Shown here: positions 37,127 to 62,867 of the stretch, one piece after another
Numbering within the stretch: the first letter of the stretch is position 1
How the letters are laid out: every line of letters begins with the position of its first letter
From: an uncultured Candidatus Saccharibacteria bacterium
GTDB taxonomy: Bacteria; Patescibacteriota; WWE3; UBA101185; UBA10185
DNA: 64,000 nt
NCBI GenBank assembly: GCA_964387275.1
Contig: CAYLVW010000002.1
Location: forward strand, 63,286-127,285
Direction: 5' to 3'
Translations under genes and position numbers: made by a program
Notes under the pieces: generated by a model
Databases searched by the model: none
Told to the model about the DNA's origin: nothing
Seen by the model: the letters and a program-made list of their open reading frames with translations, nothing else

Positions 37127-37579
37127 ATGGTATTAGACTCAAAGCAGACAAGTGCTCCCACACAAAATGATCAGGCTGTAAACTCAGGGGTAACCCAGGC
37201 ACCGTCGCCAAATAACTTACCTACAAACCCAGCTACCGCAACCAGAAATACTATCAATTCTTTGTATGGTGGGTATGTGGAACAGGAATCACTACAACAA
37301 GCAACTGACCTAGAGAATATATCAATAGTCCCAGAAATAGTAAAAAACCCCGAAACTAATATACAAATAGAACCGACTATTCAACAAGAACCAAAAAAAT
37401 CCCCCACCACGCCAGAGGTGCAAATAGGTCAAAATGAAAAAGTCCCTAATGTAGAGGATCATTCAACTCACAAAGTGCAGCAGCACAGTGTAAATGCAAA
37501 AGCAGATGCGGTCACAAGCTTTGCAGACAAGGACGAAGAGGAATTTATTACAGGAATAGTACAACACCATGCAAACTAA
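37127..37579 (+). CDS. Hypothetical low-complexity protein (Gln/Pro/Thr-rich)
   Basis: ORF that overlaps the next gene's start by 11 nt. Confidence 0.35.
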   Translation: MVLDSKQTSAPTQNDQAVNSGVTQAPSPNNLPTNPATATRNTINSLYGGYVEQESLQQATDLENISIVPEIVKNPETNIQIEPTIQQEPKKSPTTPEVQIGQNEKVPNVEDHSTHKVQQHSVNAKADAVTSFADKDEEEFITGIVQHHAN

Positions 37580-39977: not shown

Positions 39978-39980
39978 TAT

Positions 39981-41738
39981 ATGAGTAAAAAAAATAAACT
40001 ATTTGAAGTAACAGAAGGTACAACAAGCGCAGAAGTAAGAGAACGTACTACGTTACTTGAAACGTCTGAAGACGAAATAAAATATGAACCCAACGCTATA
40101 GCAGAAAGAATATTAGAACGCATAGAAAAAATAAAAACAGGCAATACAGCCTTGGACAAAGCACTCCAAGATGCGGCTGATAAATTGGACGCACATGTAC
40201 ACGGACTAAATAGGTATAGCGAAGGAAGTGAAAAAAGTAGAGATGCGTACCATGAGCTTGAGAAGGATAACCCAGAAAAACTCCAAGAGGTATTTGGAAC
40301 CTACAAAACAATGGTAACAGACCACTTACTAATTGTAGAAAAGCTGTTAGATCAAACAGAAACAAATCCCCAGGGAGCCGCACTAGCAGTAGAACTTATA
40401 ACTGCTTCCACTGAAAACAGAAGAGGAAAAGAAGAGGAAACAAGAAAAAGGTTAAGAGAGTTTGGCATAAGCCAAGGGTTACCTCAAGGCGGAGAAGAGC
40501 AAGTAGTCGAACTACTTAATAAAATATCAGACGGTAGAATTGAATCCTTTGCAGACTATCTTGAGACAAGTGGCTTTGATTCTATTACAGTGGAAAACTC
40601 AGCAAACACCCATAGGGAAAACCTAGGAAAAATTATTAGTCTATCGGAGCGATTTGTAGAACCAAAGGATTATGATGATATATTTGCAACAACCACAAAA
40701 GTAAAAACTAAAGTTAAGGTAGAAAAAACATCCACCGAAGCCCACACAGATGAAACACTGAATAATTTAACAGTTGAACAAATACGTGAACGTATTGCAA
40801 AGCAATGGGATACAGAAAACCAAGACGGCAGTAACCTAATAGACACAACAAGTGGACCAAAACTAGCAGAGCGAACATTTCTCGGGGGAGAAAAGCTAAG
40901 GAAACCACGACAGTTTGCACAAGTTTTTGAAAGGTATATCACTACAAAAGATAAGGATGATATAACCAGATACGATAGAGTTGATGTACCTGTAATAACC
41001 TTGTACGCCGAAAGACAATTAAGTGATTTCACCAAATCAGAAAAAATCTACTCAAATAGAAAAGACCCCGTTGTAAGGATCCCTGTTCTTAATTTTGATC
41101 CAAAAGATTTTGATGAAATAGCCTTTATGAATGAGATGTTAAAAATGGCTCGAAATAACCCTGATGGCAGCTTCGATGTATTTGTAGCAAATGATAGTGG
41201 TAAAGCTGAAACATTTAGAGTGAATGCAGAAACGTATAACGCAATGAGGTATGTGGTACAACGATCAGTGGAATCCCATGCAAAAAAGGGCATAACTTAT
41301 AATCCAGAAGAGATACTTAAAAAGGGTTTAAAAAAGCTAGGACCAAATGAAACGACAACTGAAGAAGAAATAGAGATTGAAACAGAAACAATTACTACAG
41401 AAAGTCAAAACCCTAACGAATGGGTAAATCACAAGCGAGCTCTAGCTAGAATGAAAAGTTTAAGGTCTATTGCAGGCAAAAAATTAGATTTTACGGAAGA
41501 AGAAATGGATCAAACCGGAGAGTCTCTTACCAATTTGGAAAGGATATATACTGAATTTACATCACACATAGGAAGAGTGGAATCGTACTACTATATAGCC
41601 CAACAAAGATTAAAAACTCTTAGTGGAGTTTCTAAAGGACATCCTAGATACGAAGAAGGCTTGGAGATCTACTTACAAAACTATGTGTTGGAACTTGGAG
41701 AAATGTCCATAACATTAAAAAATGCTACAACAACTTGA
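39981..41738 (+). CDS. Hypothetical acidic cytoplasmic protein (585 aa)
   Basis: Start is 4 nt after the upstream stop. No recognisable domain. Confidence 0.4.
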   Translation: MSKKNKLFEVTEGTTSAEVRERTTLLETSEDEIKYEPNAIAERILERIEKIKTGNTALDKALQDAADKLDAHVHGLNRYSEGSEKSRDAYHELEKDNPEKLQEVFGTYKTMVTDHLLIVEKLLDQTETNPQGAALAVELITASTENRRGKEEETRKRLREFGISQGLPQGGEEQVVELLNKISDGRIESFADYLETSGFDSITVENSANTHRENLGKIISLSERFVEPKDYDDIFATTTKVKTKVKVEKTSTEAHTDETLNNLTVEQIRERIAKQWDTENQDGSNLIDTTSGPKLAERTFLGGEKLRKPRQFAQVFERYITTKDKDDITRYDRVDVPVITLYAERQLSDFTKSEKIYSNRKDPVVRIPVLNFDPKDFDEIAFMNEMLKMARNNPDGSFDVFVANDSGKAETFRVNAETYNAMRYVVQRSVESHAKKGITYNPEEILKKGLKKLGPNETTTEEEIEIETETITTESQNPNEWVNHKRALARMKSLRSIAGKKLDFTEEEMDQTGESLTNLERIYTEFTSHIGRVESYYYIAQQRLKTLSGVSKGHPRYEEGLEIYLQNYVLELGEMSITLKNATTT

Positions 41739-42280
41739 TGAATCAAATGACGCTTCTAGAATCCTATGAAGACCTACCAGAAGCTGAAAAGAAAGCGATT
41801 AGAAATCAAATAGTAACATTGCTAAGTTCAATAGATGGAATGGTCCTTGAGCAAAATCCAAACTGGAGAGGTGGTCTTAGGGAAATAAACTCTGTGGATG
41901 CAACTAACCCAAACCCAATAGAAACTAAAGACCCTGTATCACCGGCACCTATATCAGAAGACAGAGCCAAAAATACAGAAGACACAGCAACTGTACAAAC
42001 CCCACAATCTGAGACCGAGGCAGATACTATCCCGCTACTACAAGAGGCAGAAGAAACAACTACTATAGTAGAACCTATAGGTCAAGAAGTGGAAAGAGCA
42101 CAACAACCTGTGTTAGAAACAGTAAGCACTATAACAGAAAAAGGGCCAGTAACTGAAAACGAGCAGGAAGCACAAGAAACGACGCCAAAATCACGAAAAA
42201 CTACTAAAAGAAAAGGTAAGAATATCAGAAAAGAAGCAGACAGACAAAGACGGCAGGCGCGACGGGAAGAAGCCTATTAG
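41735..42280 (+). CDS. Hypothetical acidic protein with an Arg/Lys-rich C-terminal tail
   Basis: Overlaps the upstream stop by 4 nt. It ends KSRKTTKRKGKNIRKEADRQRRQARREEAY. Confidence 0.4.
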   Translation: MMNQMTLLESYEDLPEAEKKAIRNQIVTLLSSIDGMVLEQNPNWRGGLREINSVDATNPNPIETKDPVSPAPISEDRAKNTEDTATVQTPQSETEADTIPLLQEAEETTTIVEPIGQEVERAQQPVLETVSTITEKGPVTENEQEAQETTPKSRKTTKRKGKNIRKEADRQRRQARREEAY

Positions 42281-42311
42281 TTGATTAATCCATAATGCTA
42301 TAATCAATTTA

Positions 42312-43502
42312 ATGCTCAATCTACCTTTTTTTAAGACAACTTCCAAAAACAAATTCCTAACAATAGACTTCGGATCAGATAGCGTTAAATGCTTGGCTTT
42401 TTACAATGACGGAGAGATAAATAAAATTATTGGGTTTGGTAAACAACAAGTGGAAAAAGGACATATCCGATCAGGAGCTGTAGTTGATATAGAAGGCGTA
42501 GATCTAGTACTAAAAGAAGCTATTGCTCAAGCAACCCAAAATTCAGGAGAATCTATTGACCAAGCCATTATAGGTCTAAATGGAACATTTATCATCAACC
42601 AATTAGTTACAGCCAGGTTACTTAGAGGTAAAAGTTCTGATATATCAAATAATGAAATGGACGATATATATGAAAGAACGGTTAAATCATCAACAGAACA
42701 AGCTTACAGTGAACTAGTAAAGACCACTGGTAGCAATGATATGGATTTGGAACTCGTAACAGCGGAGAAAGCGTATGTGAGAGTTGATGATAGACCTATC
42801 CACAAAGATACAAAACCTGCAGGAAACAAAGTTGAAATGGCTGTATTCTCATCTTTTGCACCAAGCTATCAAATGAAAAATTTATCAAAGTTATTAAAAC
42901 GCAGTGGTTTAAAAATAATAGGTGTGGTACCGGAAATGTATTCGTTGGTTAAGTCTATCAACCATAAAAAGATTGGATCAAATGATTACCTAATAATAAA
43001 CATTGGTAGCGATAAAACTGAGATTGGCATAGTCTTTGGGGGAAATTTAATTTCCACCAAATCACTTCCTATTGGTGGATATCACTTTACTTATCAAATG
43101 AGTCATGTGTTAGGTTTATCAATAAAAGAAGCTGAAAATTTGAAACGTTCATATTCGCAAGGAAAGCTGCCTAATAGTGAAAGTCTAACAGTTCAAAACT
43201 GTTTTAGTGAAATACTGGAAACCTGGTTAAGTGGTATTGAATTAACTTTTGGAGAATTTACAGGAGTAAAAACTTTCTCATCTAAAATATACTTAACCGG
43301 TGGGGGAATTCATCTTCCTGACATATATGATTACCTAACTAGTGAACCTTGGACCAAATCGATACCATTTAAAGACACGCCAACATTCGAAAAAGTGACA
43401 GCCAAAGATCTACCAGGCATTCAAGATGAAACACAGATGGTAAGTGGGCCTGAGTGGGTAATGCCTGTTTCACTAAGTAATATATTTCATAATCTTGTAT
43501 GA
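42312..43502 (+). CDS. Actin-like ATPase of the FtsA/PilM family
   Basis: Phosphate-1 motif FLTIDFGSDSVKCLAF, and KIYLTGGGIHLPDI near the C-terminus. Confidence 0.5.
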   Translation: MLNLPFFKTTSKNKFLTIDFGSDSVKCLAFYNDGEINKIIGFGKQQVEKGHIRSGAVVDIEGVDLVLKEAIAQATQNSGESIDQAIIGLNGTFIINQLVTARLLRGKSSDISNNEMDDIYERTVKSSTEQAYSELVKTTGSNDMDLELVTAEKAYVRVDDRPIHKDTKPAGNKVEMAVFSSFAPSYQMKNLSKLLKRSGLKIIGVVPEMYSLVKSINHKKIGSNDYLIINIGSDKTEIGIVFGGNLISTKSLPIGGYHFTYQMSHVLGLSIKEAENLKRSYSQGKLPNSESLTVQNCFSEILETWLSGIELTFGEFTGVKTFSSKIYLTGGGIHLPDIYDYLTSEPWTKSIPFKDTPTFEKVTAKDLPGIQDETQMVSGPEWVMPVSLSNIFHNLV

Positions 43503-45016
43503 CTAAAATAGAACTAGAAATTTTTGACGACCTAATAGTTACACTAAACAAAATAAGAGCGGTTAATGATTCTGGGATTGAGCTCCACATACCAGAAGGC
43601 TCTCCTATTTTGGACAACATTGTTTCATTAAAACTTCTAAAAAAAGAGGCAGAAAACATGCAAAAAATCCTGCACTTTGTTACAAAAGATGTAGCAGGTC
43701 TTGAACTTTTATCGCAACTACAAGAAGAACAAACAGATACTTTAGTGGAGCAAGAAGTAGATAAAATATCAGAAGACGGCGCAATAGGAACAATCACAAA
43801 AAAACCTGCGTTTAGATTCCCTACATTAAAACTCCCAAAACTGCACGCAGGACTCCCAATAATTGCATTAATAATTGTAGTTGTTGGGGGAATCTTACTT
43901 GCAGGTGGTTGGTATTTGTATAACTTGCCGAAGGCTGAAGTCACAATTGTGGTAAGCTCAGAATCACTTTCCAAAGGATTACCGGTTAAAGTGAAAGACG
44001 GGGTTTCTACTTCAGCAGAACAAAAAACTCTAAGAGGGTACATATTTAAATCAACCCTAACAGAAACAAAAGAAGCGGATACTACAGGAGAGAAAATTGT
44101 AGGAAAAAGCGCCAAAGGTAAAATAAAGATCTTTAATAAAACTACTGAAGAAAAAACTTTTAAAAAAGGACAAACTGTAACATACGAAGATGACGAAGAA
44201 AACGATTTTACATTTACGACTGATGAAGAAATAACAGTACCTGCAAGAGTAGATAATATTGATGGGACTATTACCTCCGGGGAAAAGGAGGTTTCTGTAA
44301 CCGCATCAAATATAGGTGAGAACTATAATATTAAGTCTGGGAAAACACTTAGCGTTAAGGATCAGAAAAGCGCAGATTTTACCGCAATTTCTGTTGAAAA
44401 CTTCACTGGAGGAAAGAGTGAAAAAGTTAAAGTGGTCGCTCAATCCGATCTAACTAAATTATCAAGCGATGTAACAACCGCATTAAAACAAAAAGCTCTT
44501 GAGGATTTGAAATTCAAATTAGGTCTTACCCAAAAAATAATTGAGGGAACCATACAAACTAAGGTTGTTGAAGAAGCATTCAATCATAAAGTAAACGAAG
44601 AATCTGAAAAAATTATACTTACACAAAATGTCGAAGCCAGCGCCTTGGTATATTCTTCGGTAGATATGGATGAACTGCTAGATAATCTATTGGAGAGCTT
44701 TGTACCAAGTGGGTATGTGCTATCTTCAAAAGATAAGGTTGTTAATATTGAGGTTTTAGGAAACTCAGCAACAACAGTGTTAAAAGAAAACGAAGCTGAC
44801 GTACAACTTACTATTAAAACTTATATAGTCGCTGATATTACAGAGGAAGGCATTAAAGATGCGATAAAGGGAAAGGGGGTAGAAGAGGCTAAAAAAGTGC
44901 TAGACGAAGTTAAAAACGTTAACAGTTACGCTTTAAATCTAAACCCTTCTATCCCACTACTAAGTTTTATACCTAAAGACACCAATAGAATAACAGTTGA
45001 TATCAAAAGGGAGTGA
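43499..45016 (+). CDS. Hypothetical bitopic membrane protein (TM near residue 115, large Lys/Thr-rich ectodomain)
   Basis: Contains LPIIALIIVVVGGILLAGGWYLY. Overlaps the upstream stop by 4 nt. Confidence 0.4.
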   Translation: MTKIELEIFDDLIVTLNKIRAVNDSGIELHIPEGSPILDNIVSLKLLKKEAENMQKILHFVTKDVAGLELLSQLQEEQTDTLVEQEVDKISEDGAIGTITKKPAFRFPTLKLPKLHAGLPIIALIIVVVGGILLAGGWYLYNLPKAEVTIVVSSESLSKGLPVKVKDGVSTSAEQKTLRGYIFKSTLTETKEADTTGEKIVGKSAKGKIKIFNKTTEEKTFKKGQTVTYEDDEENDFTFTTDEEITVPARVDNIDGTITSGEKEVSVTASNIGENYNIKSGKTLSVKDQKSADFTAISVENFTGGKSEKVKVVAQSDLTKLSSDVTTALKQKALEDLKFKLGLTQKIIEGTIQTKVVEEAFNHKVNEESEKIILTQNVEASALVYSSVDMDELLDNLLESFVPSGYVLSSKDKVVNIEVLGNSATTVLKENEADVQLTIKTYIVADITEEGIKDAIKGKGVEEAKKVLDEVKNVNSYALNLNPSIPLLSFIPKDTNRITVDIKRE

Positions 45017-45573: not shown

Positions 45574-45975
45574 TGGTGGAGATGGCGAGAATCGAACTCG
45601 CGTCTTGAAAACCCAAAAACAAAAAACTACAAGTTTAGCTGTACTTAAGTGTCAGAAAATCATGGAGTACAACAACCTAAAATCTTCCTAAGACCTTCTT
45701 CTGTGAAAGGTGGAATTACATCCTAAAAATCAAAGTGGGTCAAACTCTAATTTCGCATCCGAAAATTATAAAGTTGTGGTCTTACATCTTTCGGAGGAAG
45801 TAAGGCAACTTAACCTAAGCTCTTTGAGCTGTGGTTAGGCTAAAGCACCGGCGTAAGCTGGTACTAAAGCTTCTGATTCAACATCAGCATTTATTTTTTG
45901 CAAATTTTTTGAAGCAGTTTTGCAACTTCTACTTGTTTCTGAGATTGGGAAATCCAATCAAAGCCGATCATCCCC
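45574..45975 (-). ncRNA. ssrA: tmRNA (SsrA)
   Basis: The 5' end GGGGATGATCGGCTTTGATTGGATTTCCC resembles E. coli GGGGCUGAUUCUGGAUUCGACGGGAUUUGCG. The 3' end GCGAGTTCGATTCTCGCCATCTCCACCA has a tRNA-like T-arm and CCA. The internal tag ORF GCT GAT GTT GAA TCA GAA GCT TTA GTA CCA GCT TAC GCC GGT GCT TTA GCC TAA translates to ADVESEALVPAYAGALA*. Confidence 0.85.
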
Positions 45976-46057: not shown

Positions 46058-46510
46058 CTAATGCCAGATACTTTTTAACTCAACCTTTAGATCCTTGTCC
46101 ATCTGTTTCACCTTTTCTATATCTTTCTTCTCATATTTCTTAAGACCTCTTACTATACCAAGTTCCAATTTTATCAGATTGTGTGACAATATCAACGCAA
46201 GGGGCACCGCAGACTTCCCTTTCTGAGATAGTTCTTTTATTAAGATACTTACTTCTTTGGAAGTCAGTAGAAGTGAGCGTGTTTTTCTACTGTCTGCTTC
46301 ATTATGGGGTTGTGATTGATTTGAGTACCTACCTACGTACATATTCAATATAACAGGCTTCCCTGAAAGTACTTGTACAAAACTGCCATCAAAGTTAACT
46401 TTTCCTTCTCTTATTGCCTTAACCTCATAACCTTTAAGAACGAGTCCTGCTGTTAACGTCTCGAGTATTTCGTAATCGTGGAAAGCTTTTCTATTCTTAG
46501 CTAGTAACAT
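46058..46510 (-). CDS. smpB: SsrA-binding protein SmpB
   Basis: NRKAFHDYEILETLTAGLVLKGYEVKAIREG compares with NRKARHDYEILETYEAGIVL in the SmpB consensus. Confidence 0.9.
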   Translation of the reverse strand: MLLAKNRKAFHDYEILETLTAGLVLKGYEVKAIREGKVNFDGSFVQVLSGKPVILNMYVGRYSNQSQPHNEADSRKTRSLLLTSKEVSILIKELSQKGKSAVPLALILSHNLIKLELGIVRGLKKYEKKDIEKVKQMDKDLKVELKSIWH

Positions 46511-46554: not shown

Positions 46555-47967
46555 TTATCTTCTACCGCCCTTTTTTTCACCCATTATCATTGCTTCAACT
46601 TTTGAAGGAGCAGAATTCGCAAAATAGAAACCCATCATTAAAATAGCAGGTAACATTACGAGAGTTACCATACCCCCAGCTGTATAACCAAATATAGCAA
46701 CACCAAAGAAGTTATCTACCCCAGTCATTACCTGAACAAAAATATTCATCGCAATCAAAAACGTCATTGCCAAGACCCCAGTCATAGCAGGTAAGCTTAG
46801 CATGTAAACTGCCATCTGCTTAAACCAATCAATGGTCATATTATCATTTCCCGGTATAGCACCAATAACAAATATTATAGGGGAGGTTATTATAGCCACT
46901 ATCATTTTGACGTAAGTAAAACCAATTTTTACAGCAATCCAAAGCATCCCAACCAAAGCCATTACTGCAAGAATTATTGGAACAAGAAAGATAAAACCCA
47001 CAGTCATTAAACCTAAAGAAGCCCCAGTTAAAAAGAAATAGAATATAGGTAAAGGCCCTAGATGAGAAAATAGGTCTGCTGCCTGTTGTAAGGAAGGTGT
47101 GTCACCTCCAGTCACAGCCGCTGTCATGATAATAGGAACTATACTTACCATTAAGGATCTACCGATAGTGGTCATAGTGGCCCCAATAGGATAACTGAAA
47201 GTTATTAGTATAATGGCTATAATAATTCTTGGTATTGCAAATTGAACTGTTACGATTGTTTGCTGATCTATCTTTCTCCTATTCATTATCATAAAACCAA
47301 GCACTAACATCACTATCGCTAATAAGCCGTAAGAAATGTTTCTAAACAACTTCCATGTACCTAAAACCATAGAAAGGGCTACTTGGTTACCCGGATCTCC
47401 GTAGGTTTGAGCTAAGGCTTTACCAATAAAAGGCACGTGGGCAACGGTGTCGTTAGCGTAGTAAGCTAGATTTACAGGAACCAAATCTGTGTGGGTAGTG
47501 CTGTTCACAAAACCTACCAACCCAGCAAAACTACCACCAACAGTGGATTTTGGATCCACTAAAGCGTAGTTATCAACAAACGCTGATGATATGTAACCAG
47601 GCTTTAAAGAATTTGCCAAATTCTGACAAAACTCTGCATCATATGTATCTGCTGTAGAGGGATCTAAACTGACTAAAGAGGGATCTACATCGTGAATAGC
47701 TTGAGCGCACCCACAAATTTGATCTATATTACCACCAAAAAAAGCTGCGCTAGGAATCTCTTGTATAAGAGTGGTTGCAATATTCATGGTAGTTCGGGTT
47801 ATATCTAAGTTTCTGAATATATCTACAACATTTATGTAGGTGTTCTCTCTGCTGTTGCAAGTAGCAACAACCTGAGCAGAAACACTTGGAGTTAAGTACA
47901 AAGCGATGGAAGTGAAAAGCAGTGTGAATACAGAGTATTTAATTAGACTTATTCTCTCAGTTAACAT
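46555..47967 (-). CDS. VirB6/TrbL-like polytopic membrane protein (signal peptide, roughly 200-aa ectodomain, at least 5 TM)
   Basis: Assigned on topology only. It has a signal peptide MLTERISLIKYSVFTLLFTSIALYLTPSVSAQ and a Cys-containing ectodomain, followed by multiple TM helices. Confidence 0.4.
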   Translation of the reverse strand: MLTERISLIKYSVFTLLFTSIALYLTPSVSAQVVATCNSRENTYINVVDIFRNLDITRTTMNIATTLIQEIPSAAFFGGNIDQICGCAQAIHDVDPSLVSLDPSTADTYDAEFCQNLANSLKPGYISSAFVDNYALVDPKSTVGGSFAGLVGFVNSTTHTDLVPVNLAYYANDTVAHVPFIGKALAQTYGDPGNQVALSMVLGTWKLFRNISYGLLAIVMLVLGFMIMNRRKIDQQTIVTVQFAIPRIIIAIILITFSYPIGATMTTIGRSLMVSIVPIIMTAAVTGGDTPSLQQAADLFSHLGPLPIFYFFLTGASLGLMTVGFIFLVPIILAVMALVGMLWIAVKIGFTYVKMIVAIITSPIIFVIGAIPGNDNMTIDWFKQMAVYMLSLPAMTGVLAMTFLIAMNIFVQVMTGVDNFFGVAIFGYTAGGMVTLVMLPAILMMGFYFANSAPSKVEAMIMGEKKGGRR

Positions 47968-48034
47968 TCTGAGGAAATTTTACAATAAAAACAAAATATC
48001 AACAACAACCTACTTATATACTATAATTCAGGGT

Positions 48035-51000
48035 ATGGCACGTAATCCATTCTATACAGGATATATACCTGGTGATGAAAACGATCCACTATATAAAATA
48101 AGGCCTAAGAGAGTTAAGCCCGGTACTCCTGTAAATTTTGGGTTTAATTTTGAAACACAATTAGTGCAGGAGCTTGAACATGAAGCAGACATTCCAGCCA
48201 AAGTAAAAGAATACATTATAGACGCGGAGGTAGACGAAATTAAGTCAGCATTTAAGGTGTCGGCTGGCATAGGTAAGAAAAGCTCGCTATCAAACCAAAA
48301 ACTAAACGATATTCAAAGAACTGGCGAAGAACCAGAACTACCCGGAGCAATGGGTCTTAGTGTAAATCTAATTGATCTTGTAACTAATCCGCAAGAAACT
48401 GTAGCAAAAGTTCTAACCGAGGGCTGGAAAAACATCACCAGCTGGGAGGAATTTGATCAAAACCTATCGCACAGAGCATTTGCAAGAATTTTAATGGATA
48501 AAGATGCTCCAATTGATGAAGAGAACGGGCCAAATACAGGTAAAGAACTTGAGCCAAGGCTACCTCTACAAAAACTTGCAGAAGATACATATACAAGAGG
48601 AACAATAAATCTCTCTGGTATAGAACTTCCCGATTATTCAGACCAAGGACAAAAAAACCCACTACAAATGTGGAGTGATAATAAATCTGGCTTTAGAAGA
48701 GGTAGAGGTAGATTCTTTGAAATCAAATATAAAAATTATGATGGAGACGAAGTAACAGAGAAAGTTGGTATGGAAACAATGTATAAAGAAGTTGCGGATA
48801 AAGCTTCTAAATTTGTGATGACCTCAAAATCCGCTTCAAGTAGGGATAGTGCTTATGAAGACTACCTAGCAACTTTACAAAAGGTACTCACCAAAGAGCT
48901 TGATCAATGGGACGGAACTCTAACAGATGACATGAAGGAAAGGTTAAAAAAGGCTGCAGCCATAAATCCTGCCCTTGCAATACCTGAAGATAAGGTTGTA
49001 GAGGTATTAAAACAAGCACGAAGTAATTTTGTGAATAAAGGGGGCTTAATAAACGCTGTTAGGGATTTGGGTGGAGATGAAGATAGTGGTCTGGGAGGAC
49101 TATCATCCCAGCTAAGTAGGTTTGTAGTCGAAGGACGCACAGACAATACAGCCTCCGAGATGGAAAAAACCATAGCAGGAATAGGTAGTGCAATAAAAAC
49201 CAGTGAAAAAAAGATAGATACACTAAGAAACGCATTATCAGGAGAAGCACTAAGCACTTTCAATAAACAAATCAGACCGTATGAAGAGTTGTTAACACAA
49301 ATTAAAGGTACAGTTTTTGATGTTAAAGAAGGTGAAACTCTAGCAGTATTTAATGCAACTACAGCAAGCCCAAATGTAAGAAGATTATTAAATAATATCA
49401 AGTCTGGCGTAGCAGGCCTTGGGGATAAAGCAGATGCTACATCAATATTAACTACCATAAATTTTGTAACTAGTGGTGGATTAGACCCCACTAAAAGCCC
49501 TCTTACAAACGGTACAGTTGTAAATCAAAGTCTTTTATTTAAGTTGCAAAGAGATCTTATTGAAGGTGGGTTTGATAGAAGTATCGGCGCCAGAGAAATG
49601 GTACACCTTGATGACATTGGAGTATTAACAGACATAATGGGTGTTGAAGATGCAAACGCTTTGAAAGTCCTCACTAAAAGACTCCAAAATATGAGGGAGT
49701 GGGACGCGTTTAGAGAAGCACTACAAAACTTTGATGGAGGAAAGCTTTGGAGAAACTATTACTATGTAAAAAGAATTAGAGACAACCTTACAATTCTCAC
49801 ACCTTCTTATTGGGTTAACCACGCACTAAAACGGGTTCAGTACTTTGGATTTAAGATTGATGAGAAAAACTTGGCTAAAAGTCCTAAATTAATCCAATAT
49901 CTAATAACAGGGTCTCCTCTGAGTGCTTTATTTGTAAACAGATTTTCATTAAATATTACTTTTGTAGGTGCTGGTAAAACTAAAGTTAAGCTTGAGGGTG
50001 GAAAACACTTTAATGGAGTAACAAGCCTATACAGCTTATACAGCTCAGAAAAATTAAGCAAAGCAGAACTTAAAAGTTTCCTAAGTTTTATAGCCTTTGA
50101 TGCAAAAGCACTCTACAAAGATCCCGCAAAGAAAATAATGAATGCTGATTGGGTTGAGTGGCATAAGAAACTAACAGATGTTTTTAAAGATAAAGATAAA
50201 GCCCAAAAGTTTTTAGAAGATATACAAGGCTTCACAACTTGGTTACAAACTAAAGGAAAATCAATTGTTGGTGAAAAAGTGCTTAGAGACGCCGAAAATC
50301 TATTTAAACTTCTAGGAGCTTTGGTAAATCACGAAAGCAAGGCAGGCACTTCAAGCATCACAACGACTTTCCTGGGTGTAATAGATAAGGTAGCCATTCA
50401 ATTTAATAAAGTTCAGTCCTATTTGTTAAATAAATTTGGTAAGTGGCTTGCACCAATCAGCTACCTAAAACAAGCTATTGCAGAGGGTGTGACGGATGCA
50501 TTAATGGGCATACTTGCTGCGATCACAGGGGGTCTATCTGCCACTGCAACTCCTATAATAAAGTGGGTCCTACAATGGACCGTCGTTAAAACCCTAGATT
50601 TCTTCGAAAAAATAATACAAGGCATATCAAAAGGAGATTTATCCTTCATATTTAAGGGATACGAAAAAACCCTAACCAGAATATTCAAATATGTAATGTA
50701 CGCTTCTATTGTCCCGTTCACATGTATGCTTCTGGTTTTGTTTGTTTTTAATGTGTTGCTTTCTTCGATAAACCCGGTTAATGTGGCTAGAAACACCGTA
50801 AGTTCTGCGTTTTCATCTGTAACAGGTAGTTTTTTTACTGGAGCTGTAGGGGCGATTGTAGGAGCACTCTTTGATGGAGGAAGTGATGGGCATTATCTAT
50901 CTCAAAGAGATGCAGCATGGGCTACAGTACTTATAGGTGCCTCAGGACTTACTTTATATGAAGTTGGTTGTTTAATTGTTAGTGTTGCTATGGTGTATAG

Positions 51001-51322
51001 CTATTACGGTATAAATATCTCTCCAGTGGAAATAGCCCTAAATGCAGCCAATTTCGCTGGAAATAGTGCTTTACTATATATGCCTTCTATCGGTGGGCAT
51101 ACTTGGGCAACCGCTACATCAATTGCAGGTGAGATTGCAGCAGGAAACCCTGTAATTCTAGGGATAAACACAGGCCCTTGGGGTACTCATTTTGTAGTAG
51201 CTATAGGCATGGACTCAAATGGATGTCCTATAATACATGACCCCTGGATTGGCCCTGATAGAAATTACTGCACTGAGTACGGCAGTATGAGCAAAATATT
51301 TACTACAAGAGTACTAAGATAA
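48035..51322 (+). CDS. Giant (about 1096 aa) envelope protein: soluble N-region, multi-TM region, and a C-terminal C39-like (Peptidase_C39_2) papain-fold cysteine peptidase domain
   Basis: The C-terminal YEVGCLIVSVAMVYSYYGINISPVEIA...GTHFVVAIGMDSNGCPIIHDPW matches the C39_2 pattern (nGCeitSLAMvLnYYG...HavVvtGyd...vnDP). The start is trimmed to MARNPFYTG (ATG at 48035), with TATAAT 8 nt upstream. Confidence 0.5.
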   Translation: MARNPFYTGYIPGDENDPLYKIRPKRVKPGTPVNFGFNFETQLVQELEHEADIPAKVKEYIIDAEVDEIKSAFKVSAGIGKKSSLSNQKLNDIQRTGEEPELPGAMGLSVNLIDLVTNPQETVAKVLTEGWKNITSWEEFDQNLSHRAFARILMDKDAPIDEENGPNTGKELEPRLPLQKLAEDTYTRGTINLSGIELPDYSDQGQKNPLQMWSDNKSGFRRGRGRFFEIKYKNYDGDEVTEKVGMETMYKEVADKASKFVMTSKSASSRDSAYEDYLATLQKVLTKELDQWDGTLTDDMKERLKKAAAINPALAIPEDKVVEVLKQARSNFVNKGGLINAVRDLGGDEDSGLGGLSSQLSRFVVEGRTDNTASEMEKTIAGIGSAIKTSEKKIDTLRNALSGEALSTFNKQIRPYEELLTQIKGTVFDVKEGETLAVFNATTASPNVRRLLNNIKSGVAGLGDKADATSILTTINFVTSGGLDPTKSPLTNGTVVNQSLLFKLQRDLIEGGFDRSIGAREMVHLDDIGVLTDIMGVEDANALKVLTKRLQNMREWDAFREALQNFDGGKLWRNYYYVKRIRDNLTILTPSYWVNHALKRVQYFGFKIDEKNLAKSPKLIQYLITGSPLSALFVNRFSLNITFVGAGKTKVKLEGGKHFNGVTSLYSLYSSEKLSKAELKSFLSFIAFDAKALYKDPAKKIMNADWVEWHKKLTDVFKDKDKAQKFLEDIQGFTTWLQTKGKSIVGEKVLRDAENLFKLLGALVNHESKAGTSSITTTFLGVIDKVAIQFNKVQSYLLNKFGKWLAPISYLKQAIAEGVTDALMGILAAITGGLSATATPIIKWVLQWTVVKTLDFFEKIIQGISKGDLSFIFKGYEKTLTRIFKYVMYASIVPFTCMLLVLFVFNVLLSSINPVNVARNTVSSAFSSVTGSFFTGAVGAIVGALFDGGSDGHYLSQRDAAWATVLIGASGLTLYEVGCLIVSVAMVYSYYGINISPVEIALNAANFAGNSALLYMPSIGGHTWATATSIAGEIAAGNPVILGINTGPWGTHFVVAIGMDSNGCPIIHDPWIGPDRNYCTEYGSMSKIFTTRVLR

Positions 51323-51443: not shown

Positions 51444-51920
51444 TTATAAAGTGATTCCAAAATTACTCAACAAATTAACCAGTGAGGCATAAAAAGTGTT
51501 AACTATACCTTGGGGGCTGGATGCATTTATACCGACCATGCCAGCAGCAATACCAACAATAGAGAAACTTCCCAACACAGCCAAAAAACCCAAGAAAGCA
51601 TAAAATATTGTATCTTTTGCTCCTTGAAATCCTTTTGGGTCACCTAAGGACTGAGACATTTTAATACCACCATATGCTGCCATAATTGCGAAAACAAGGC
51701 TTGAAGAATATAAAGCTATATTTACTACCCTAAGCAAAGGACAAATTATTGCGGCAATACTTGGGGGGTCAGCATCTCCACTACCCGAACCCCAATCGAC
51801 GATAGAAGGACATGAATATGGTGTGGGGCTCATCGGAACCGCATAAACATTAGGGGTCAAAAAAAAGAGTGAAACTAATAAAGTTAAACTTATTATAATT
51901 GGGTTAAAACGTTTTCTCAC
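51444..51920 (-). CDS. VirB2/TrbC-like pilin paralog 4 (signal peptide plus TM hairpin)
   Basis: Signal peptide, a Cys-containing spacer, TM1, the loop SQSLGDPKGFQGAKDT, then TM2. Confidence 0.45.
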   Translation of the reverse strand: MRKRFNPIIISLTLLVSLFFLTPNVYAVPMSPTPYSCPSIVDWGSGSGDADPPSIAAIICPLLRVVNIALYSSSLVFAIMAAYGGIKMSQSLGDPKGFQGAKDTIFYAFLGFLAVLGSFSIVGIAAGMVGINASSPQGIVNTFYASLVNLLSNFGITL

Positions 51921-51922: not shown

Positions 51923-52243
51923 TTAGAACTCTGTATTTAAATTAGTAATATTTGGGTCAGTAACACCAAGAGCTTGGGTTATGGTTAATCTTGCCCCAAT
52001 AACCACAAAAGAAATTAAAATAGCAAAAGCACCATAAACAACAGCGTTCCAAGCCTGCTGTACCCCTTTTGGATCCCCTTTACTCATAATATATAAGTAA
52101 CAGGCCCATGCCAAGTTAACAATCGCAGCGCCAAACCCTACTCCCGCTAGGATATTTAGACCTACAATCAAAAAGTCCCTAATAGAATCAGGGGCTGATG
52201 CTGGATAAAATTGAGTTGCTAAGTTGTCTATTACGTTGAACAT
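51923..52243 (-). CDS. VirB2/TrbC-like pilin paralog 3
   Basis: TM1 is LIVGLNILAGVGFGAAIVNLAWACYLYIM, the loop is SKGDPKGVQQAWN, and TM2 is AVVYGAFAILISFVVIGA. Confidence 0.45.
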   Translation of the reverse strand: MFNVIDNLATQFYPASAPDSIRDFLIVGLNILAGVGFGAAIVNLAWACYLYIMSKGDPKGVQQAWNAVVYGAFAILISFVVIGARLTITQALGVTDPNITNLNTEF

Positions 52244-52309: not shown

Positions 52310-52645
52310 TTAGAATATTGCGGATCCTCCCGGTCCTGTGGCATTTCCACCGATCAAACCTGGGATAATAGTCCTCAATACTGTGATAAAGAAAAGACCC
52401 ACGCCTCCTACTACGGCATAAGTAAGCCATTGTCTGGCTGCATCAGTAGCTTTAACTTCTCCCTTGGATGTAACATACTGTACAAAACCCAAAGCTAACA
52501 TAACGAAAACTAAAGCCCATCCTATACCGATAATGAGGTTAATTACCATAGCGAATACCTGAGGCAAACTGGATACGTTTGGTAATGGGTTGCTCAACGT
52601 GGTACTAACCGCGGTTTGAGCATAAACTCTTTGTAATAATTCCAT
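52310..52645 (-). CDS. VirB2/TrbC-like pilin paralog 2
   Basis: Long leader, TM1 FAMVINLIIGIGWALVFVMLALGFVQYV, loop TSKGEVKATDAARQW, TM2 LTYAVVGGVGLFFITVL. Confidence 0.45.
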   Translation of the reverse strand: MELLQRVYAQTAVSTTLSNPLPNVSSLPQVFAMVINLIIGIGWALVFVMLALGFVQYVTSKGEVKATDAARQWLTYAVVGGVGLFFITVLRTIIPGLIGGNATGPGGSAIF

Positions 52646-52674: not shown

Positions 52675-53190
52675 CTAAAGTAATGCTGTTATTATAACCC
52701 TTAATAATCCTGCAGACAACAAAATAAACAAAGTGCCCATAATTGCGGAGGACATCTCCTCTACAGCTTCTTTATACTTCTGTGGATTGCCTTCACTCAG
52801 TTTTATAGAATAACCGGCTTTAATTATAGAAAATATTGCATATCCTATAGCCAACGGAAACGCTACTGCATAAAGGTTCTCTATAACGGTATTAAAATTA
52901 AGGATTGTATACCACTCACTTGCTGTTCCAGTAGGTAAGGGCATTGGGGGAACAGGAGTAGGCGTAGGGGTAATTACTACACAAGTACACATCTCAGACC
53001 CGGGAGGGTTTTCAACACAGCGTATGGGATTACCACCCCCATCGGGAACCACACCGCCAATTAAGGAACCCTGACAAGGACCACAACTAGTAGGCAAGCA
53101 CAGCTGCGCAAAGACACTTGGAGTGAAAAACACTAAAGATGCCAAAAGAAAAAGGAAAAACACTGTTAAGTTTTGGTATAATCTCTTCAT
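52675..53190 (-). CDS. VirB2/TrbC-like pilin paralog 1 with a Cys/Pro-rich N-region
   Basis: Signal peptide, then CLPTSCGPCQG...CTCVVITPTPTPVP, a hydrophobic helix, the loop KLSEGNPQKYKEAVEEM, and a second helix. Confidence 0.4.
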   Translation of the reverse strand: MKRLYQNLTVFFLFLLASLVFFTPSVFAQLCLPTSCGPCQGSLIGGVVPDGGGNPIRCVENPPGSEMCTCVVITPTPTPVPPMPLPTGTASEWYTILNFNTVIENLYAVAFPLAIGYAIFSIIKAGYSIKLSEGNPQKYKEAVEEMSSAIMGTLFILLSAGLLRVIITALL

Positions 53191-53248
53191 AAGTATGACC
53201 TGCCAAAATTATCAAGCACCCCAAAATAAACGTCAAGGTTTATTGATA

Positions 53249-55072
53249 ATGACTTTGATGATTATAACAACGATTGTGGTAATTACCATACCTCCAATGA
53301 TTGTTTATGCTGAAGACGACCTTGAGGATATCCAAAAAGAGATTGAAGAAAAAGAAGAAGATTATGAATCTACATCCAAAAAACTAGACAGTATTAAAAG
53401 CCAAAAAGACAATATTGCCCAAAAGATAGCAAATCTATCAAGCCAACTTACTGTAACAGACTCCGAAATAAAAGATCTAGAAAATGATATACAAAAACTC
53501 CAGTCTGATTTAGAAGTTATTAATAAAAATCTGTTGGACAGCAACACAGCACTTCAGGATCGAATTGATCTTAGAAATAAGGTCATTAGAAATTACTCAA
53601 AAAGAAGCACCGAAAATTACCTGCAGATGTTTTTATTAAATGGAAATGGACTAAATGGTTTCCAATTTAATACCTTAACCTATATTTTTGATAAAACTTT
53701 TTCTGACGAAAGTATCCAGCTAATTCAAAGCATAAACGTAGAGATTGATAATTTCGAAAAGGATAAGAAAGAATCAGAAGAATTAAAAAAGCAAATTGAA
53801 GAACAAAAAACCAAACTTGTAAATGCAAAAAATGTGCTTCTTGCTCAAAAAAGCTCTGCACAGGGTGAATTAGATAACCTACAAAAACAGCAAAGTTCCT
53901 TCGAAAATGAGCTAGCAAAAATTAGTGCTACTCTAGACAATCTGAACAAAAAACAACAAGAGATTCTAAAAGAAAAGTATGGATCCGAACAAGAAACGGT
54001 GGGAGACAACGAAACAGACTACTCAGAACTACCTGATCCAAGCTTTTCACCAGCGTATGCTTTCTACACTTATGGCTACCCACATAGAGTTGGAATGAGT
54101 CAATACGGAGCTTACGGCAGGGCAAAAGCAGGGCAAAAGTATAAAGACATTCTAAAAGCCTATTTTAACAATGTAAGTGTTGAGGAGAAGTGGGACGATG
54201 ACGATAAAATACCTGTACAAGGTTACGGAAATATAAAAATGCGCGACTACCTATATGGAATTGCAGAAGTTCCGGAAAGTTGGGCTGATCATGGGGGTTA
54301 TGAAGCTTTGAAAGCTCAGGCAGTAGCGGCGAGAACGTATGCTCTTAACTATATTTATTACACTTATGACTCGAAATCTGGAACTATCAAAGAAAAATCC
54401 CCGGTATCAATTTGCACTACTCAAGCATGCCAAGTATACAATGGTGGCAAAAAAACTGGTACTTGGAAAAAAGCTGTAGATGAAACGGAAGGTGAGGTAA
54501 TAACCTATGGCGGTAAACCCATTACCTCTTGGTTCGCATCGACATCGGGTGGTTACACCCGAACAGCAGCTCAGGTGTGGGGTAGCACAAGACCATGGAC
54601 AAAAAACATGAAAGATGCTTCCTGCTCAGGAAACCTTTCGGACTGTGCTTATGAAGGACCTAAATATGGTAATTCTCCGTGGTTCTATAAAGCCTGGAAT
54701 TCAGGATATTCTGCAAAAAATGCCTGGATGAAAGAAGACGAGGTTCAAGATATTATTAACTCTTATCTACTTTGGGATGACGACAACGACTTGATAGACA
54801 AACTCTCACCACCTTCAAAAGACGGAGATGCCTGGGACAAGGAGGAAGTTATAGAGGAGCTAGAGGACAGAGATATTGATCCTGTAGGTAATATATCGTC
54901 AATAAAAGCTTATGACGATGGAAACGGATATACCACAAAAATTGTTGTTAAATCGTCAAATTACTCAAACCTAGAGCTTGATGGATACGATTTTAGAAAT
55001 ATTTTTAACCTAAGATCACGAGAAAGTCTTTATATCTATACATCATTCTTTAATATCAGGGTTGAGAATTAA
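53249..55072 (+). CDS. SpoIID/LytB-domain protein with an N-terminal TM and a long coiled coil
   Basis: GYPHRVGMSQYGAYGRA...AVAARTYALNY...ICTTQACQVYNGG...SWFASTSGGYT. The start is trimmed to MTLMIITT (ATG at 53249). Confidence 0.7.
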   Translation: MTLMIITTIVVITIPPMIVYAEDDLEDIQKEIEEKEEDYESTSKKLDSIKSQKDNIAQKIANLSSQLTVTDSEIKDLENDIQKLQSDLEVINKNLLDSNTALQDRIDLRNKVIRNYSKRSTENYLQMFLLNGNGLNGFQFNTLTYIFDKTFSDESIQLIQSINVEIDNFEKDKKESEELKKQIEEQKTKLVNAKNVLLAQKSSAQGELDNLQKQQSSFENELAKISATLDNLNKKQQEILKEKYGSEQETVGDNETDYSELPDPSFSPAYAFYTYGYPHRVGMSQYGAYGRAKAGQKYKDILKAYFNNVSVEEKWDDDDKIPVQGYGNIKMRDYLYGIAEVPESWADHGGYEALKAQAVAARTYALNYIYYTYDSKSGTIKEKSPVSICTTQACQVYNGGKKTGTWKKAVDETEGEVITYGGKPITSWFASTSGGYTRTAAQVWGSTRPWTKNMKDASCSGNLSDCAYEGPKYGNSPWFYKAWNSGYSAKNAWMKEDEVQDIINSYLLWDDDNDLIDKLSPPSKDGDAWDKEEVIEELEDRDIDPVGNISSIKAYDDGNGYTTKIVVKSSNYSNLELDGYDFRNIFNLRSRESLYIYTSFFNIRVEN

Positions 55073-61444: not shown

Positions 61445-62758
61445 CTATCTCTCATCGAGATACTTATCCAAGAAGATCTGAAAATCCCTATGATTTCGAT
61501 AATCCGACTGGGTAATACCCTTATACAAGGCTACCGCACAAAACCAACGTTCCTCTCCTTCATAAGTAGCTCCACAAACTCCATACTTCTGAAGGAAAAT
61601 CTCATCTGCATCCTGCATATGAGAATCCACATCATACAAAACCAGGTTAGGGTTTAGATGAGAATGGACGGCAAGATAAATTTGCCCCACACCAATAGCA
61701 CCCAACTCATTAATCTTAATGAATTCTGTACCTTCCCAACAGTGACTAAAATTACTCTCAGATTCCCAAAGAGCAAGTTGAATTCTTGTGGGAATACCAA
61801 GGCTTAAAGCCAAGGATCTTGCTTTTTCCCGCAACTCTTCTTTAGAAAAGGTACAAGAGGTACCACCATAAATCTGAGGCTTCTCCGTTCTAACCCCAGT
61901 TAGATTTACAGTCTCTGGGTCAATAAATTTACCGTCCTTCCAAAGCGCTTGGTGACAATGAGGGCCGGTAGAATTTCCCGTACTACCTTGTCTACCAATA
62001 ATCTGCCCTGAGTTTACGAAAGTTCCAACATCAGGCATATCTTGACCTGTTAGGTGACCACAAAGCCACATATATTCCGAGGGGTTTGACCCATCGGGGT
62101 TGGCCAAAATGCTCTTAAGAATTACTGTAAAACCAGATACCCACAGATCTACCGCCATCCTATCAGTTTTTTCATCAATGTAACCGGATCCTACAACAAC
62201 TGCAGGAAACGGTGCAACAATAGGAACATCGTAAAGACTTCTACCCACATCACTCAAACCACAAGATGTATCCAAACCAGGATGTGGTTGCGATATAGAA
62301 AATCTGTAACCAGTAATAACGGTGTTAACCCCCTTTTCACATGGAGGCATAATGACCCCACCATTGATTACAGGAACAACCACCTCAGGATCCACAGTTG
62401 AAAAACCGCCAGTACTACTAATACCAAAACCCCCATTATCAGATGCATACGCTACAATAAACTTTTTGATAGCATCCACTGAGTAAATTGAAGCATTAGG
62501 TGCAGCGCTTGAATCAAAACCAAAGTTAGGAAGCGCTGGTACTTCAACCGATACCTGAGTAGAAACAACTGTAGGTAACTGGGTCGCAGCAGTAGGACTT
62601 ACAGTTAACAAACTTGTGTAATCTTTAGTAGGTGAAATCTGTGATTCACTGGGTTTTGGTACGATAGATGGGTTGGTATAAGCTAGCACTCCCATTAAAA
62701 CCCCAAAAGCCAAACCAAGTACAACAATAATCTCTATAACATGAGATTGTTTGTTCAT
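61445..62758 (-). CDS. Bifunctional cell-wall hydrolase: M23/LytM metallopeptidase plus C-terminal lytic transglycosylase (SLT)-like domain, signal-anchored
   Basis: M23 motifs are PHPGLD and GSTGNSTGPHCH. SLT-like segments are LALWESESNF and GAIGVGQI. The start is trimmed to MNKQSHV (ATG at 62758), with AGGAG 8 nt upstream. Confidence 0.6.
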   Translation of the reverse strand: MNKQSHVIEIIVVLGLAFGVLMGVLAYTNPSIVPKPSESQISPTKDYTSLLTVSPTAATQLPTVVSTQVSVEVPALPNFGFDSSAAPNASIYSVDAIKKFIVAYASDNGGFGISSTGGFSTVDPEVVVPVINGGVIMPPCEKGVNTVITGYRFSISQPHPGLDTSCGLSDVGRSLYDVPIVAPFPAVVVGSGYIDEKTDRMAVDLWVSGFTVILKSILANPDGSNPSEYMWLCGHLTGQDMPDVGTFVNSGQIIGRQGSTGNSTGPHCHQALWKDGKFIDPETVNLTGVRTEKPQIYGGTSCTFSKEELREKARSLALSLGIPTRIQLALWESESNFSHCWEGTEFIKINELGAIGVGQIYLAVHSHLNPNLVLYDVDSHMQDADEIFLQKYGVCGATYEGEERWFCAVALYKGITQSDYRNHRDFQIFLDKYLDER

Positions 62759-62867
62759 TTCTCTCTTCTCCTGATTTTGATCTCTCGTCTCCACACACCT
62801 TAAGATGTATGAAAAAGAAAGGGTGAGAAGGTTGGTTTGTAACCAAATCCTTCTCACCACAGGTGAG

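Follow-up and report, generated by a model that had tools for sequence, protein, structure and literature searches.

What does a protein of 1095 residues, with a peptidase at its C-terminal end, do beside a row of pilin genes in a bacterium of the Patescibacteria/Candidate Phyla Radiation type? The question is raised by a gene in a stretch of 64,000 nucleotides (called the window here) from contig CAYLVW010000002.1 of assembly GCA_964387275.1, which comes from an uncultured Candidatus Saccharibacteria bacterium of the WWE3 lineage. The window is ordinary low-GC chromosome (36% GC), with genes for DnaK, MurJ, LepA, GAPDH, UvrD-type helicases and SmpB, and with tmRNA. A prediction made earlier from the DNA sequence (the original prediction) had described the product as a giant envelope protein with a long soluble region, about five transmembrane (TM) helices and a C39-like peptidase domain, lying in a locus that resembles those for pili or type IV secretion systems (T4SS) and serving either to process pilins or to cleave the cell wall for insertion of the apparatus. 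We consider it probable that the protein is a bitopic wall peptidase dedicated to a T4SS, that is, a functional analogue of VirB1 built on a different chassis.

The C-terminal domain is a papain-fold cysteine peptidase of the Peptidase_C39_2 family. Residues 975–1071 match the Pfam profile PF13529 with 38.2 bits (E 2.7e-9; the Pfam gathering cut-off is 24), and an AlphaFold2 model of residues 940–1095, computed from a 73-sequence alignment, has a predicted local distance difference test score (pLDDT) of 92.9 and a predicted template modeling score (pTM) of 0.88. When this model is compared with the PDB by Foldseek, papain-like folds alone stand at the top (probability 0.97–1.00, template modeling score (TM-score) 0.44–0.59). 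The best matches are the Citrobacter CdiA-CT toxin, the C39 domains of PCAT1 and ComA, a papain-like toxin and AvrRpt2, all but the last with probabilities of 0.99–1.00, TM-scores of 0.52–0.59 and E-values of 1e-3 to 4e-2; the family of AvrRpt2, Peptidase_C70, also appears as a sub-threshold Pfam echo in the domain. The modest E-values indicate that the window domain is a divergent member of the papain fold. It does not reach the Pfam cut-off of the canonical Peptidase_C39 family (PF03412; 15.2 bits versus 22). Pfam finds no ABC domain in the window protein, whose peptidase is C-terminal and stands behind a TM helix, unlike the C39 domains of ABC exporters.

The domain also retains its predicted active site. 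When 1.84 billion cluster representatives were searched with a profile, 1452 matched, and the best 150 of these, at the 50%-identity cluster level, include 80 relatives of the domain. The predicted catalytic residues Gln957, Cys979, His1052 and Asp1069 are kept in 79 or all of the 80, as are Trp962, Gly978 and Pro1070. Thus, the window protein retains the whole Gln/Cys/His/Asp set that a C39-type enzyme of the papain fold should have, and the peptidase is probably active. The original prediction had assigned the last 150 or so residues to Peptidase_C39_2 and had proposed a Foldseek comparison and a check of the catalytic residues; papain-fold matches were found, the motifs it quoted hold Cys979, His1052 and Asp1069, to which Gln957 is to be added, and Cys and His are conserved, so that the assignment holds. 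Among the stand-alone relatives of the domain, 57 of 66 begin with a signal-like hydrophobic segment, which suggests an extracellular site of action for this C39_2 subfamily. Among the catalytic domains listed for endolysins of phages that infect Gram-positive bacteria is PF13529 (PMC8223927), which is also similar to the mycobacteriophage LysA domain N5 (PMC3314691).

On which side of the membrane does the peptidase lie? The only strong hydrophobic segment of the protein is at residues 886–910, followed directly by SINPVN, which corresponds to a conserved family motif, ISPxD/N. A hydropathy peak at residues 814–842 (about 1.5) is the loop between two helices of the AlphaFold2 model, residues 782–831 and 839–866. 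A comparable weak peak at this hairpin tip is found across the family described below (mean 1.57), and Gly833 in the tip is at least 90% conserved in family alignments of 44 and 72 sequences; the tip is probably a monotopic or re-entrant membrane contact. A further peak, at residues 924–947 (1.58), falls within the low-confidence Gly/Ser-rich linker; a second TM helix there is unlikely because the stretch is Gly-rich and of low confidence, because it has no counterpart under other heads and because relatives of the domain are secreted. The peaks at residues 962–998 are the buried helix of the peptidase core that bears Cys979. The five or so TM helices of the original prediction therefore reduce to one strong helix and one hairpin tip, and of its soluble region followed by an integral membrane scaffold, the former stands, as an 885-residue helical region, and the multi-TM scaffold does not.

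All 73 family members examined have one strong TM helix, most have no hydrophobic segment after it, and none has an N-terminal signal peptide. In the 15 residues flanking the helix, Lys plus Arg average 2.66 upstream versus 1.01 downstream, with the upstream count greater in 61 of the 73. By the positive-inside rule, this bias would place the 885-residue N-terminal region in the cytoplasm and the tail, with its peptidase, outside. The same placement agrees with the signal-like segments of the stand-alone domain relatives and with the distribution of cysteines, which are absent from residues 39–866 and occur in the tail at 979, 1064 and 1079. A topology prediction, which had been proposed along with the fold comparison, thus puts the peptidase on the outer face.

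The region in front of the TM helix resembles nothing in the databases searched. The full-length AlphaFold2 model (44-sequence alignment) has a pTM of 0.70, with pLDDT values of 80–92 across residues 250–830. Foldseek finds nothing similar to this scaffold in the PDB (best E 0.04, TM-score below 0.1), and it has no match in Pfam, PHROG or NCBIfam. A sequence search of the PDB gives no relative for the single scaffold sequence; with the family profile, it gives unspecific coiled-coil matches and, in the tails, weak matches to M23. At its N terminus, where pLDDT is below 50, the protein bears a motif whose conserved glycines were scored in the same 44- and 72-sequence alignments (Table 1); this peptide, NPxYxGYYPG, may serve in docking or recognition.

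The scaffold is nonetheless not peculiar to this organism. About 75 proteins of 800–1500 residues, counted among the same best 150 matches, align with it over the central and TM region (HMMER E 1e-47 to 1e-17) and have in common the motifs TPxY...HYFGL, G.L.K...KLN..Q (KLNxxQ), ATGGxG and KGD. The family, with a size range of 1000–1500 residues, is widespread in Patescibacteria and unnamed: those members that have a public name are listed as “hypothetical protein” (candidate division WWE3/Katanobacteria) and fragments as “C39 family peptidase” or “CHAP domain-containing protein.” The window protein has the architecture of the family, which consists of some 800–900 non-hydrophobic residues without a signal peptide, one strong TM helix and a tail of 180–450 residues.

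What differs among the members is the tail. When 74 tails were sorted by iterative hidden Markov model searches, 41 fell into one homologous group, typified by P0003, which has a consensus HxH motif and is M23/LAS-like, the family profile giving weak matches to solved M23 enzymes. Three form a separate type represented by P0007, which matches Pfam Peptidase_M23 with E 1.9e-7. Eight carry C39_2, and four of these (P0010, P0051, P0081 and P0169, the last from related locus L009) also carry CHAP; in a 1474-residue protein from a metagenome-assembled genome labelled Saccharibacteria, C39_2 (39.5 bits) is followed by CHAP (35.8 bits). CHAP is the sole domain of at least four tails, and a weak match to NlpC/P60 was obtained for one. 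Each recognisable head in the family is of a peptidoglycan-hydrolase type. A conserved scaffold carries exchangeable C-terminal heads.

The two parts of the window protein have different nearest relatives. Its scaffold is closest to P0003, a WWE3 protein whose own tail is LAS-like (171–180 bits), whereas the nearest relatives of its C39_2 head are secreted proteins of about 400 residues (29–42% identity) and not other giants with C39 heads. The coiled coil of these secreted relatives matches EnvC (8hd0, E 1.6e-16), PcsB (4cgk, E 3e-7) and RipA. In a neighbour-joining tree, which has no bootstrap support, the C39 domains of the giants are not monophyletic, a suggestive result. The simplest history would be that the window lineage swapped a metallopeptidase head for the C39_2 domain of its own division-type hydrolases. 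The secreted proteins (P0014–P0151; about 72 representatives of roughly 250–440 residues, outside the window) consist of an EnvC/PcsB/RipA-type coiled coil and then C39_2, which stands in place of LytM or CHAP, and the group looks like a cysteine-peptidase version of an FtsEX-controlled division hydrolase.

The place of the gene is as constant as the scaffold is divergent. A cassette of a polytopic membrane protein gene, the giant gene and a pilin array, often with a SpoIID gene, is present in 13 of 13 related loci (L001–L013), as far as each contig reaches, with scaffolds that are only 20–25% identical across the loci. The polytopic protein, of 470 residues in the window, is encoded divergently upstream in 10 loci (27–73% identity), and the pilin array follows the giant gene in L001–L004, L007–L009 and L011–L013. 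In L008, a TraG P-loop ATPase of the VirB4 type and a fusion with PrgI (VirB3-like) lie just upstream. The order in L011 is DnaN, a 918-residue protein, a TraC-like protein, PrgI, a 464-residue membrane protein, the giant with an M23 head, a PEGA protein, pilins and SpoIID. In the window itself, the pilus- or T4SS-like locus of the original prediction is confirmed by four pilin-like genes directly downstream and a VirD4/TraD-like ATPase gene 8 kb upstream. Three of the pilin-like proteins match PF18895 (T4SS_pilin) with 18.5, 22.1 and 27.4 bits, of which only the last exceeds the cut-off of 26.6; the 158-residue member has a weak match to the NCBIfam family Mbov_0395, which is pilin-like and from integrative and conjugative elements. 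The ATPase matches phrog_5156 strongly and the NCBIfam families SXT_TraD and CD1115 VirD4-like below their cut-offs.

Taken together, four observations support the wall-cleaving alternative of the original prediction. The peptidase is predicted to lie outside the membrane; M23/LAS-like, CHAP or C39_2 plus CHAP domains hold the same position on homologous scaffolds, and M23/LAS-like and CHAP domains are classic peptidoglycan hydrolase modules; the closest C39_2 relatives are secreted coiled-coil hydrolases of the EnvC/PcsB type; and the gene is fixed beside pilin arrays and T4SS genes in the 13 loci. Moreover, the MurJ, SpoIID and M23 genes of the window indicate that the organism makes peptidoglycan. 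The protein could then work as follows. The N-terminal 885 or so residues, a novel all-helical cytoplasmic scaffold, could contact the ATPases of the system, and the hairpin tip and the single TM helix would hold this scaffold in the membrane beside its polytopic partner. The flexible linker would present the predicted Cys-His-Asp peptidase on the outer face, at the wall, where it most likely would cut the peptide stems or cross-links of peptidoglycan, the presumed substrate. The wall would thereby be opened locally for a secretion channel or for the VirB2-like pilus encoded next door, which is how the giant protein would cooperate with the T4SS; the wall of a host cell at the contact site may also be a target. 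Glycan strands would be cleaved by the adjacent SpoIID-type enzyme. This enzyme (PDB sequence matches: SpoIID 4rwr, E 3e-19; coiled coil of 8i6o_E, E 1e-3) is encoded syntenically in L001–L004, L011 and L012, is of the lytic transglycosylase type and is likely the glycan-cutting partner.

Several points weigh against this proposal. The C39_2 head is structurally nearer to C39 leader-peptide cleavers and papain-like toxins than to the NlpC/P60-type T6SS amidases Tse1/Tae1 (TM-score about 0.35), which rank lower, and every Foldseek E-value for the domain is 1e-3 or weaker. The predicted topology derives from hydropathy and charge bias only, and the linker is moderately hydrophobic at residues 924–947; were this stretch to cross the membrane, the peptidase would face the cytoplasm. 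Some 15–20 family tails have no recognisable hydrolase domain, among them tails of the type found in P0080, the giant of the syntenic locus L012. Finally, there is no VirB4 gene within the 64-kb window.

Other readings of the same observations can be weighed against these. The variable heads on a conserved body would also fit a delivered weapon, with the whole protein or its released head acting as a T4SS-associated anti-host effector that resembles a polymorphic toxin or a tape-measure protein; the helical body and hydrophobic hairpin would insert into or span the host envelope while the head digested host peptidoglycan, and in some lineages a cognate small membrane protein encoded downstream would protect or regulate the producer. 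Peptidoglycan hydrolase effectors delivered by T4SS are known in Xanthomonadales. Structurally, the CdiA-CT toxin and the papain-like toxin, a member of a toxin/immunity pair, are among the folds that match the head best; a small downstream gene for a TM-anchored protein tracks head type (types 1 and 2, below); and the top matches of the full-length model in BFVD are tape-measure or minor tail proteins. We nevertheless regard this reading as unlikely. The strong TM helix, the positive-inside bias and the lack of a secretion signal point to stable insertion in the producer's own membrane, the small downstream gene is absent from the window, L001–L003, L012 and L013, and its type 1 form is confined to one clade, such that its co-variation with the head may be phylogenetic. 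The BFVD matches, moreover, are not significant, and there is no PHROG match.

The other alternative of the original prediction was a pilin-processing enzyme, and a protease that cuts at Gly-Gly-type sites, whether in the VirB2-like pilins or in some other secreted protein, has some attractions: four pilin genes adjoin, some T4SS pilins need terminal trimming or cyclisation, and the fold is closest to the C39 domains of PCAT1 and ComA, the C39 domains of ABC exporters being known to cut bacteriocin leaders at such sites. The canonical C39 family is not reached, however, nor is there an ABC transporter fusion, and the predicted location of the peptidase is outside rather than cytoplasmic. The closest domain relatives have the EnvC/PcsB architecture, and homologous scaffolds at the same genomic position bear M23/LAS or CHAP wall enzymes, which are not pilin processors. 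As for the pilin-like proteins, the two of 158 and 171 residues begin with signal peptides of the ordinary kind, which the remaining two lack. Pilin processing thus has no positive support and is the least probable of the readings considered here. A general wall-remodelling or division hydrolase that lies near pilin genes by chance, with no dedicated role in secretion, seems very unlikely as well. It would accord with the similarity of the head to EnvC/PcsB-type division hydrolases and with the ordinary chromosomal setting (DnaK, MurJ, LepA, SmpB and tmRNA), but it would leave unexplained the linkage to the gene for the protein of about 470 residues and to the pilin array in every related locus at such low scaffold identity, and the PrgI, TraC-like or VirB4-type genes that adjoin where contigs are long enough. 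Chromosomal T4SS loci are, in any case, the rule in Patescibacteria (PMC12102498).

There is also a more far-reaching reading, which we think quite unlikely, in which the giant family is a new core element of the T4SS that couples the cytoplasmic ATPases to breaching of the wall, either spanning the distance from cytoplasm to wall or being ejected in the manner of a tape measure. Were this so, the hairpin could insert in the host membrane, the exchangeable head would be matched to the chemistry of the host wall, a co-varying small membrane partner would serve in some lineages, and both the range of hosts and the feeding channel would be determined in part by the giant protein.

The proposed VirB1 analogue can be compared with several known systems, the nearest of which is in Candidatus Southlakia epibionticum ML1. 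In the essential T4SS cluster SEML1_0005–0019 described by Wang et al. (2023, Cell; PMC10633639), SEML1_0007 is a 1113-residue “hypothetical protein” beside virB4, and the only recognised domain given for it is a Hedgehog/DD-peptidase fold at residues 951–1105. After SEML1_0007, whose function epibiotic growth requires, the cluster encodes a protein of the lysozyme type and one with PEGA (PMC10633639; PMC12102498). The protein is like that of the window in having about 950 residues without a recognisable domain and then about 150 residues of a wall-peptidase type, and its cluster shares with the giant loci PrgI, a pilin array, a PEGA protein and a separate glycan hydrolase, the same set as in L011. 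It differs in that its head is a LAS metallopeptidase and not C39_2, and in that it lies directly downstream of virB4. Compared in these terms, namely length, domain layout and cluster content, the giant family is probably the counterpart of SEML1_0007.

The VirB1-type hydrolases of classical systems (PrgK of pCF10, TraG of pIP501, TcpG and CwlT) are likewise T4SS-encoded and membrane-anchored with catalysis outside, and they combine or pair a peptidase (CHAP, NlpC/P60 or LytM) with glycan cleavage to open the wall (PMC12102498). The window protein resembles them in being encoded with T4SS genes, which are the pilin array and the ATPase of the type IV coupling protein type in the window and PrgI with TraC-like or VirB4-type genes in L008 and L011. 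In VirB1-type proteins, however, a short N-terminal anchor precedes the catalytic domains, whereas the window protein is inverted, with an 885-residue scaffold, then the TM helix and then the catalytic domain. It has no SLT, CHAP or NLPC_P60 match in Pfam; the head here is C39_2, and glycan cutting would fall to a separate SpoIID-type protein. SLT and CHAP in PrgK and TraG, and a peptidase and a lysozyme in Southlakia, would represent the same division of labour as that proposed here (PMC12102498).

Two other groups share the domain itself. The PF13529 domains of phage endolysins and the C39-like peptidase of Bacillus anthracis (3erv) belong to the same Pfam family and have the same Gln/Cys/His/Asp set, but the endolysins are small soluble proteins with wall-binding domains, and the window domain is tethered to a giant membrane scaffold encoded in a secretion locus. 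Hydrolases of the EnvC/PcsB type, which are controlled by FtsEX, include the nearest relatives, in which C39_2 stands after a coiled coil; in the window protein, the coiled coil and the signal peptide of these relatives are both missing, and the domain is mounted on a T4SS scaffold. Some tape-measure proteins of phages, for example Pb2 of T5, also bear muralytic heads. They are alike in layout only, with about 1000 residues of helices, hydrophobic segments near the C terminus and a C-terminal wall hydrolase. We rejected homology to them: in BFVD, the probability is at most 0.28 for nine of the top ten matches (0.57 at rank 12) with TM-scores of 0.05–0.22, PHROG gives no match, no tail genes lie nearby and the context is a chromosomal T4SS.

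If the protein is indeed a T4SS wall peptidase, the family bears on a gap in what is known of these organisms. In a survey of T4SS in Patescibacteria, most genomes with VirB2 pilins had no detectable VirB1, and the T4SS is essential for epibiotic growth in S. epibionticum, the one species tested so far (PMC12102498). The unnamed giant family is a plausible supplier of the missing wall-hydrolase activity. Its architecture, in which a helical scaffold predicted to be cytoplasmic is joined through a single TM helix to a wall-hydrolase head that can be exchanged, is unseen in classical systems, and the window protein is its C39_2-headed version, with a head apparently borrowed from the organism's own EnvC/PcsB-type hydrolases. 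The family is thus a candidate link between assembly of the secretion machine and wall chemistry in ultrasmall symbionts. The advance is incremental, as wall hydrolases associated with T4SS are known already; what sets this family apart is the unusual chassis and the evidence for modular exchange of heads.

Table 1. Positions, in the window, of the giant gene, its parts and the neighbouring genes discussed (aa, amino acids; nt, nucleotides; ORF, open reading frame).
Feature	Position	Strand	Basis or remark
Gene for 1095-aa protein	48035..51322	+	ORF list; stop codon within span
Promoter-like site TCAACA-17-TATAAT	47999..48027	+	Consensus scan; ends 8 nt before ATG
Conserved N-terminal motif MAxxNPxYxGY(Y/I)PG	48035..48082	+	G9 and G13 at least 90% conserved
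All-helical scaffold, aa 39-866, two small beta hairpins, no Cys	48149..50632	+	AlphaFold2; predicted cytoplasmic
Helical-hairpin tip, aa 822-851, ALMGILAAITGGLSATATPIIKWVLQWTVV	50498..50587	+	Hydrophobic; family motif ATGGxG
Strong TM helix, aa 886-910	50690..50764	+	Kyte-Doolittle 2.45; part of model helix 870-910
Gly/Ser-rich linker, aa 911-950	50765..50884	+	pLDDT <50 in full-length model
Peptidase_C39_2 papain-fold cysteine peptidase domain, aa 951-1095	50885..51319	+	Pfam, AlphaFold2, Foldseek
Codon of Gln957 (YLSQRD), predicted oxyanion-hole residue	50903..50905	+	Kept in 79/80 relatives; codon checked
Codon of Cys979 (GCLIVS), predicted nucleophile	50969..50971	+	Kept in 79/80 relatives; codon checked
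Codon of His1052 (THFVVA), predicted general base	51188..51190	+	Kept in 80/80 relatives; codon checked
Codon of Asp1069 (HDPW; DP motif), predicted third catalytic residue	51239..51241	+	Kept in 80/80 relatives; codon checked
470-aa polytopic membrane protein, signal peptide	46555..47967	-	Divergent from giant gene
Four pilin-like genes, convergent with giant gene	51444-51920, 51923-52243, 52310-52645, 52675-53190	-	Pfam/NCBIfam
Membrane-anchored EnvC-like coiled coil plus SpoIID domain	53123..55072	+	Pfam SpoIID 68 bits
VirD4/TraD-like (type IV coupling protein-type) ATPase, 802 aa	37569..39977	+	Pfam DUF87, TraG-D_C, TrwB_AAD_bind

The gene is a real one, and its product is close to the size of about 1100 residues first given for it. 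The mechanical frame in the six-frame ORF list is longer (47906..51322, + strand), but the ATG at 48035 (MARNPFYTGY...) is the start. P0002, which is 48% identical to the window protein over its full length, begins at the same residue (MANDT...), and the longer frame would run into the divergent upstream gene. A promoter-like site also ends just ahead of the ATG, which is the weak point of the argument, since the count of such sites in the region is not above the expectation from shuffled sequence. P0002 is the only close homologue among 5.8 billion proteins in a word-indexed search, and a protein identical to that of the window, P0001, is found in public assemblies. The same kind of search gave no match with the isolated C-terminal domain and only P0001 and P0002 with the 72-sequence family alignment. 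A scan of a genome collection with patterns from one alignment (A1) found no relative; with another (A5), it supplied four of the related loci. Positions 47999–48034 hold no clear Shine-Dalgarno sequence, and the mRNA may be leaderless or nearly so.

The polytopic partner has several TM helices and a Cys-containing outer domain of about 190 residues. Neither Pfam nor a sequence search of the PDB yields a match for it, even when a 10-sequence set is used, and we assume it to be VirB6-like from its position alone. Immediately upstream of the cassette, tmRNA (45574–45975, - strand; 109.9 bits) and SmpB (46058–46510, - strand) lie side by side, and SmpB is also near the cassette in L001–L004 and L012. 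In L007 (3182–7219), L009 (826–4884) and L012 (2049–6272), a gene for a protein of 1345–1407 residues without a Pfam match stands upstream of the polytopic gene; it is absent from the corresponding position in the window. L012 otherwise has a synteny near-identical to that of the window (SmpB, membrane gene, giant, four pilins, SpoIID, DUF5657 and L25). Its giant (7817–11125, P0080), like P0083 and P0105, ends in a tail of about 185 residues without a recognisable hydrolase domain.

Further upstream, the ATPase belongs to a block at 37127–45016 (+ strand) that also holds a 150-residue ORF ahead of it, ORFs of 585 and 181 residues without matches after it, a PilM/FtsA-like protein (42312–43502) and a 505-residue ORF with a sub-threshold match to Baseplate_J (17.5 bits versus a cut-off of 21.1); these genes may encode further components of a secretion system or pilus. 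On the other side, the SpoIID protein is a fusion of an FtsEX-type regulatory coiled coil to its lytic transglycosylase-type domain, and 10 kb downstream of the giant gene, a 478-residue Peptidase_M23 protein (34.5 bits; 61445–62881, - strand) brings the wall hydrolases of the neighbourhood to three; its gene has the same place in L001 and L002.

The giant gene of the window is followed by a gap of 121 nucleotides and then the convergent pilin gene, with no small gene in between, as is also the case in L001–L003, L012 and L013 with respect to the small gene. Elsewhere, a gene for a small TM-anchored protein comes right after the giant gene and belongs to one of two unrelated families that track the head type; its product might confer immunity, regulate the giant or act as its partner. 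Type 1 follows giants with C39_2 plus CHAP (L005 6569–7075, L006 7095–7631, L007 12665–13171 and L009 10833–11348), and, as these loci form one clade, phylogeny may account for part of the tracking. Type 2, which is Big_5-like, follows giants with LAS/M23-like heads in three loci that are distantly related to one another (L004 3382–3912, L008 12268–12837 and L010 5115–5840).

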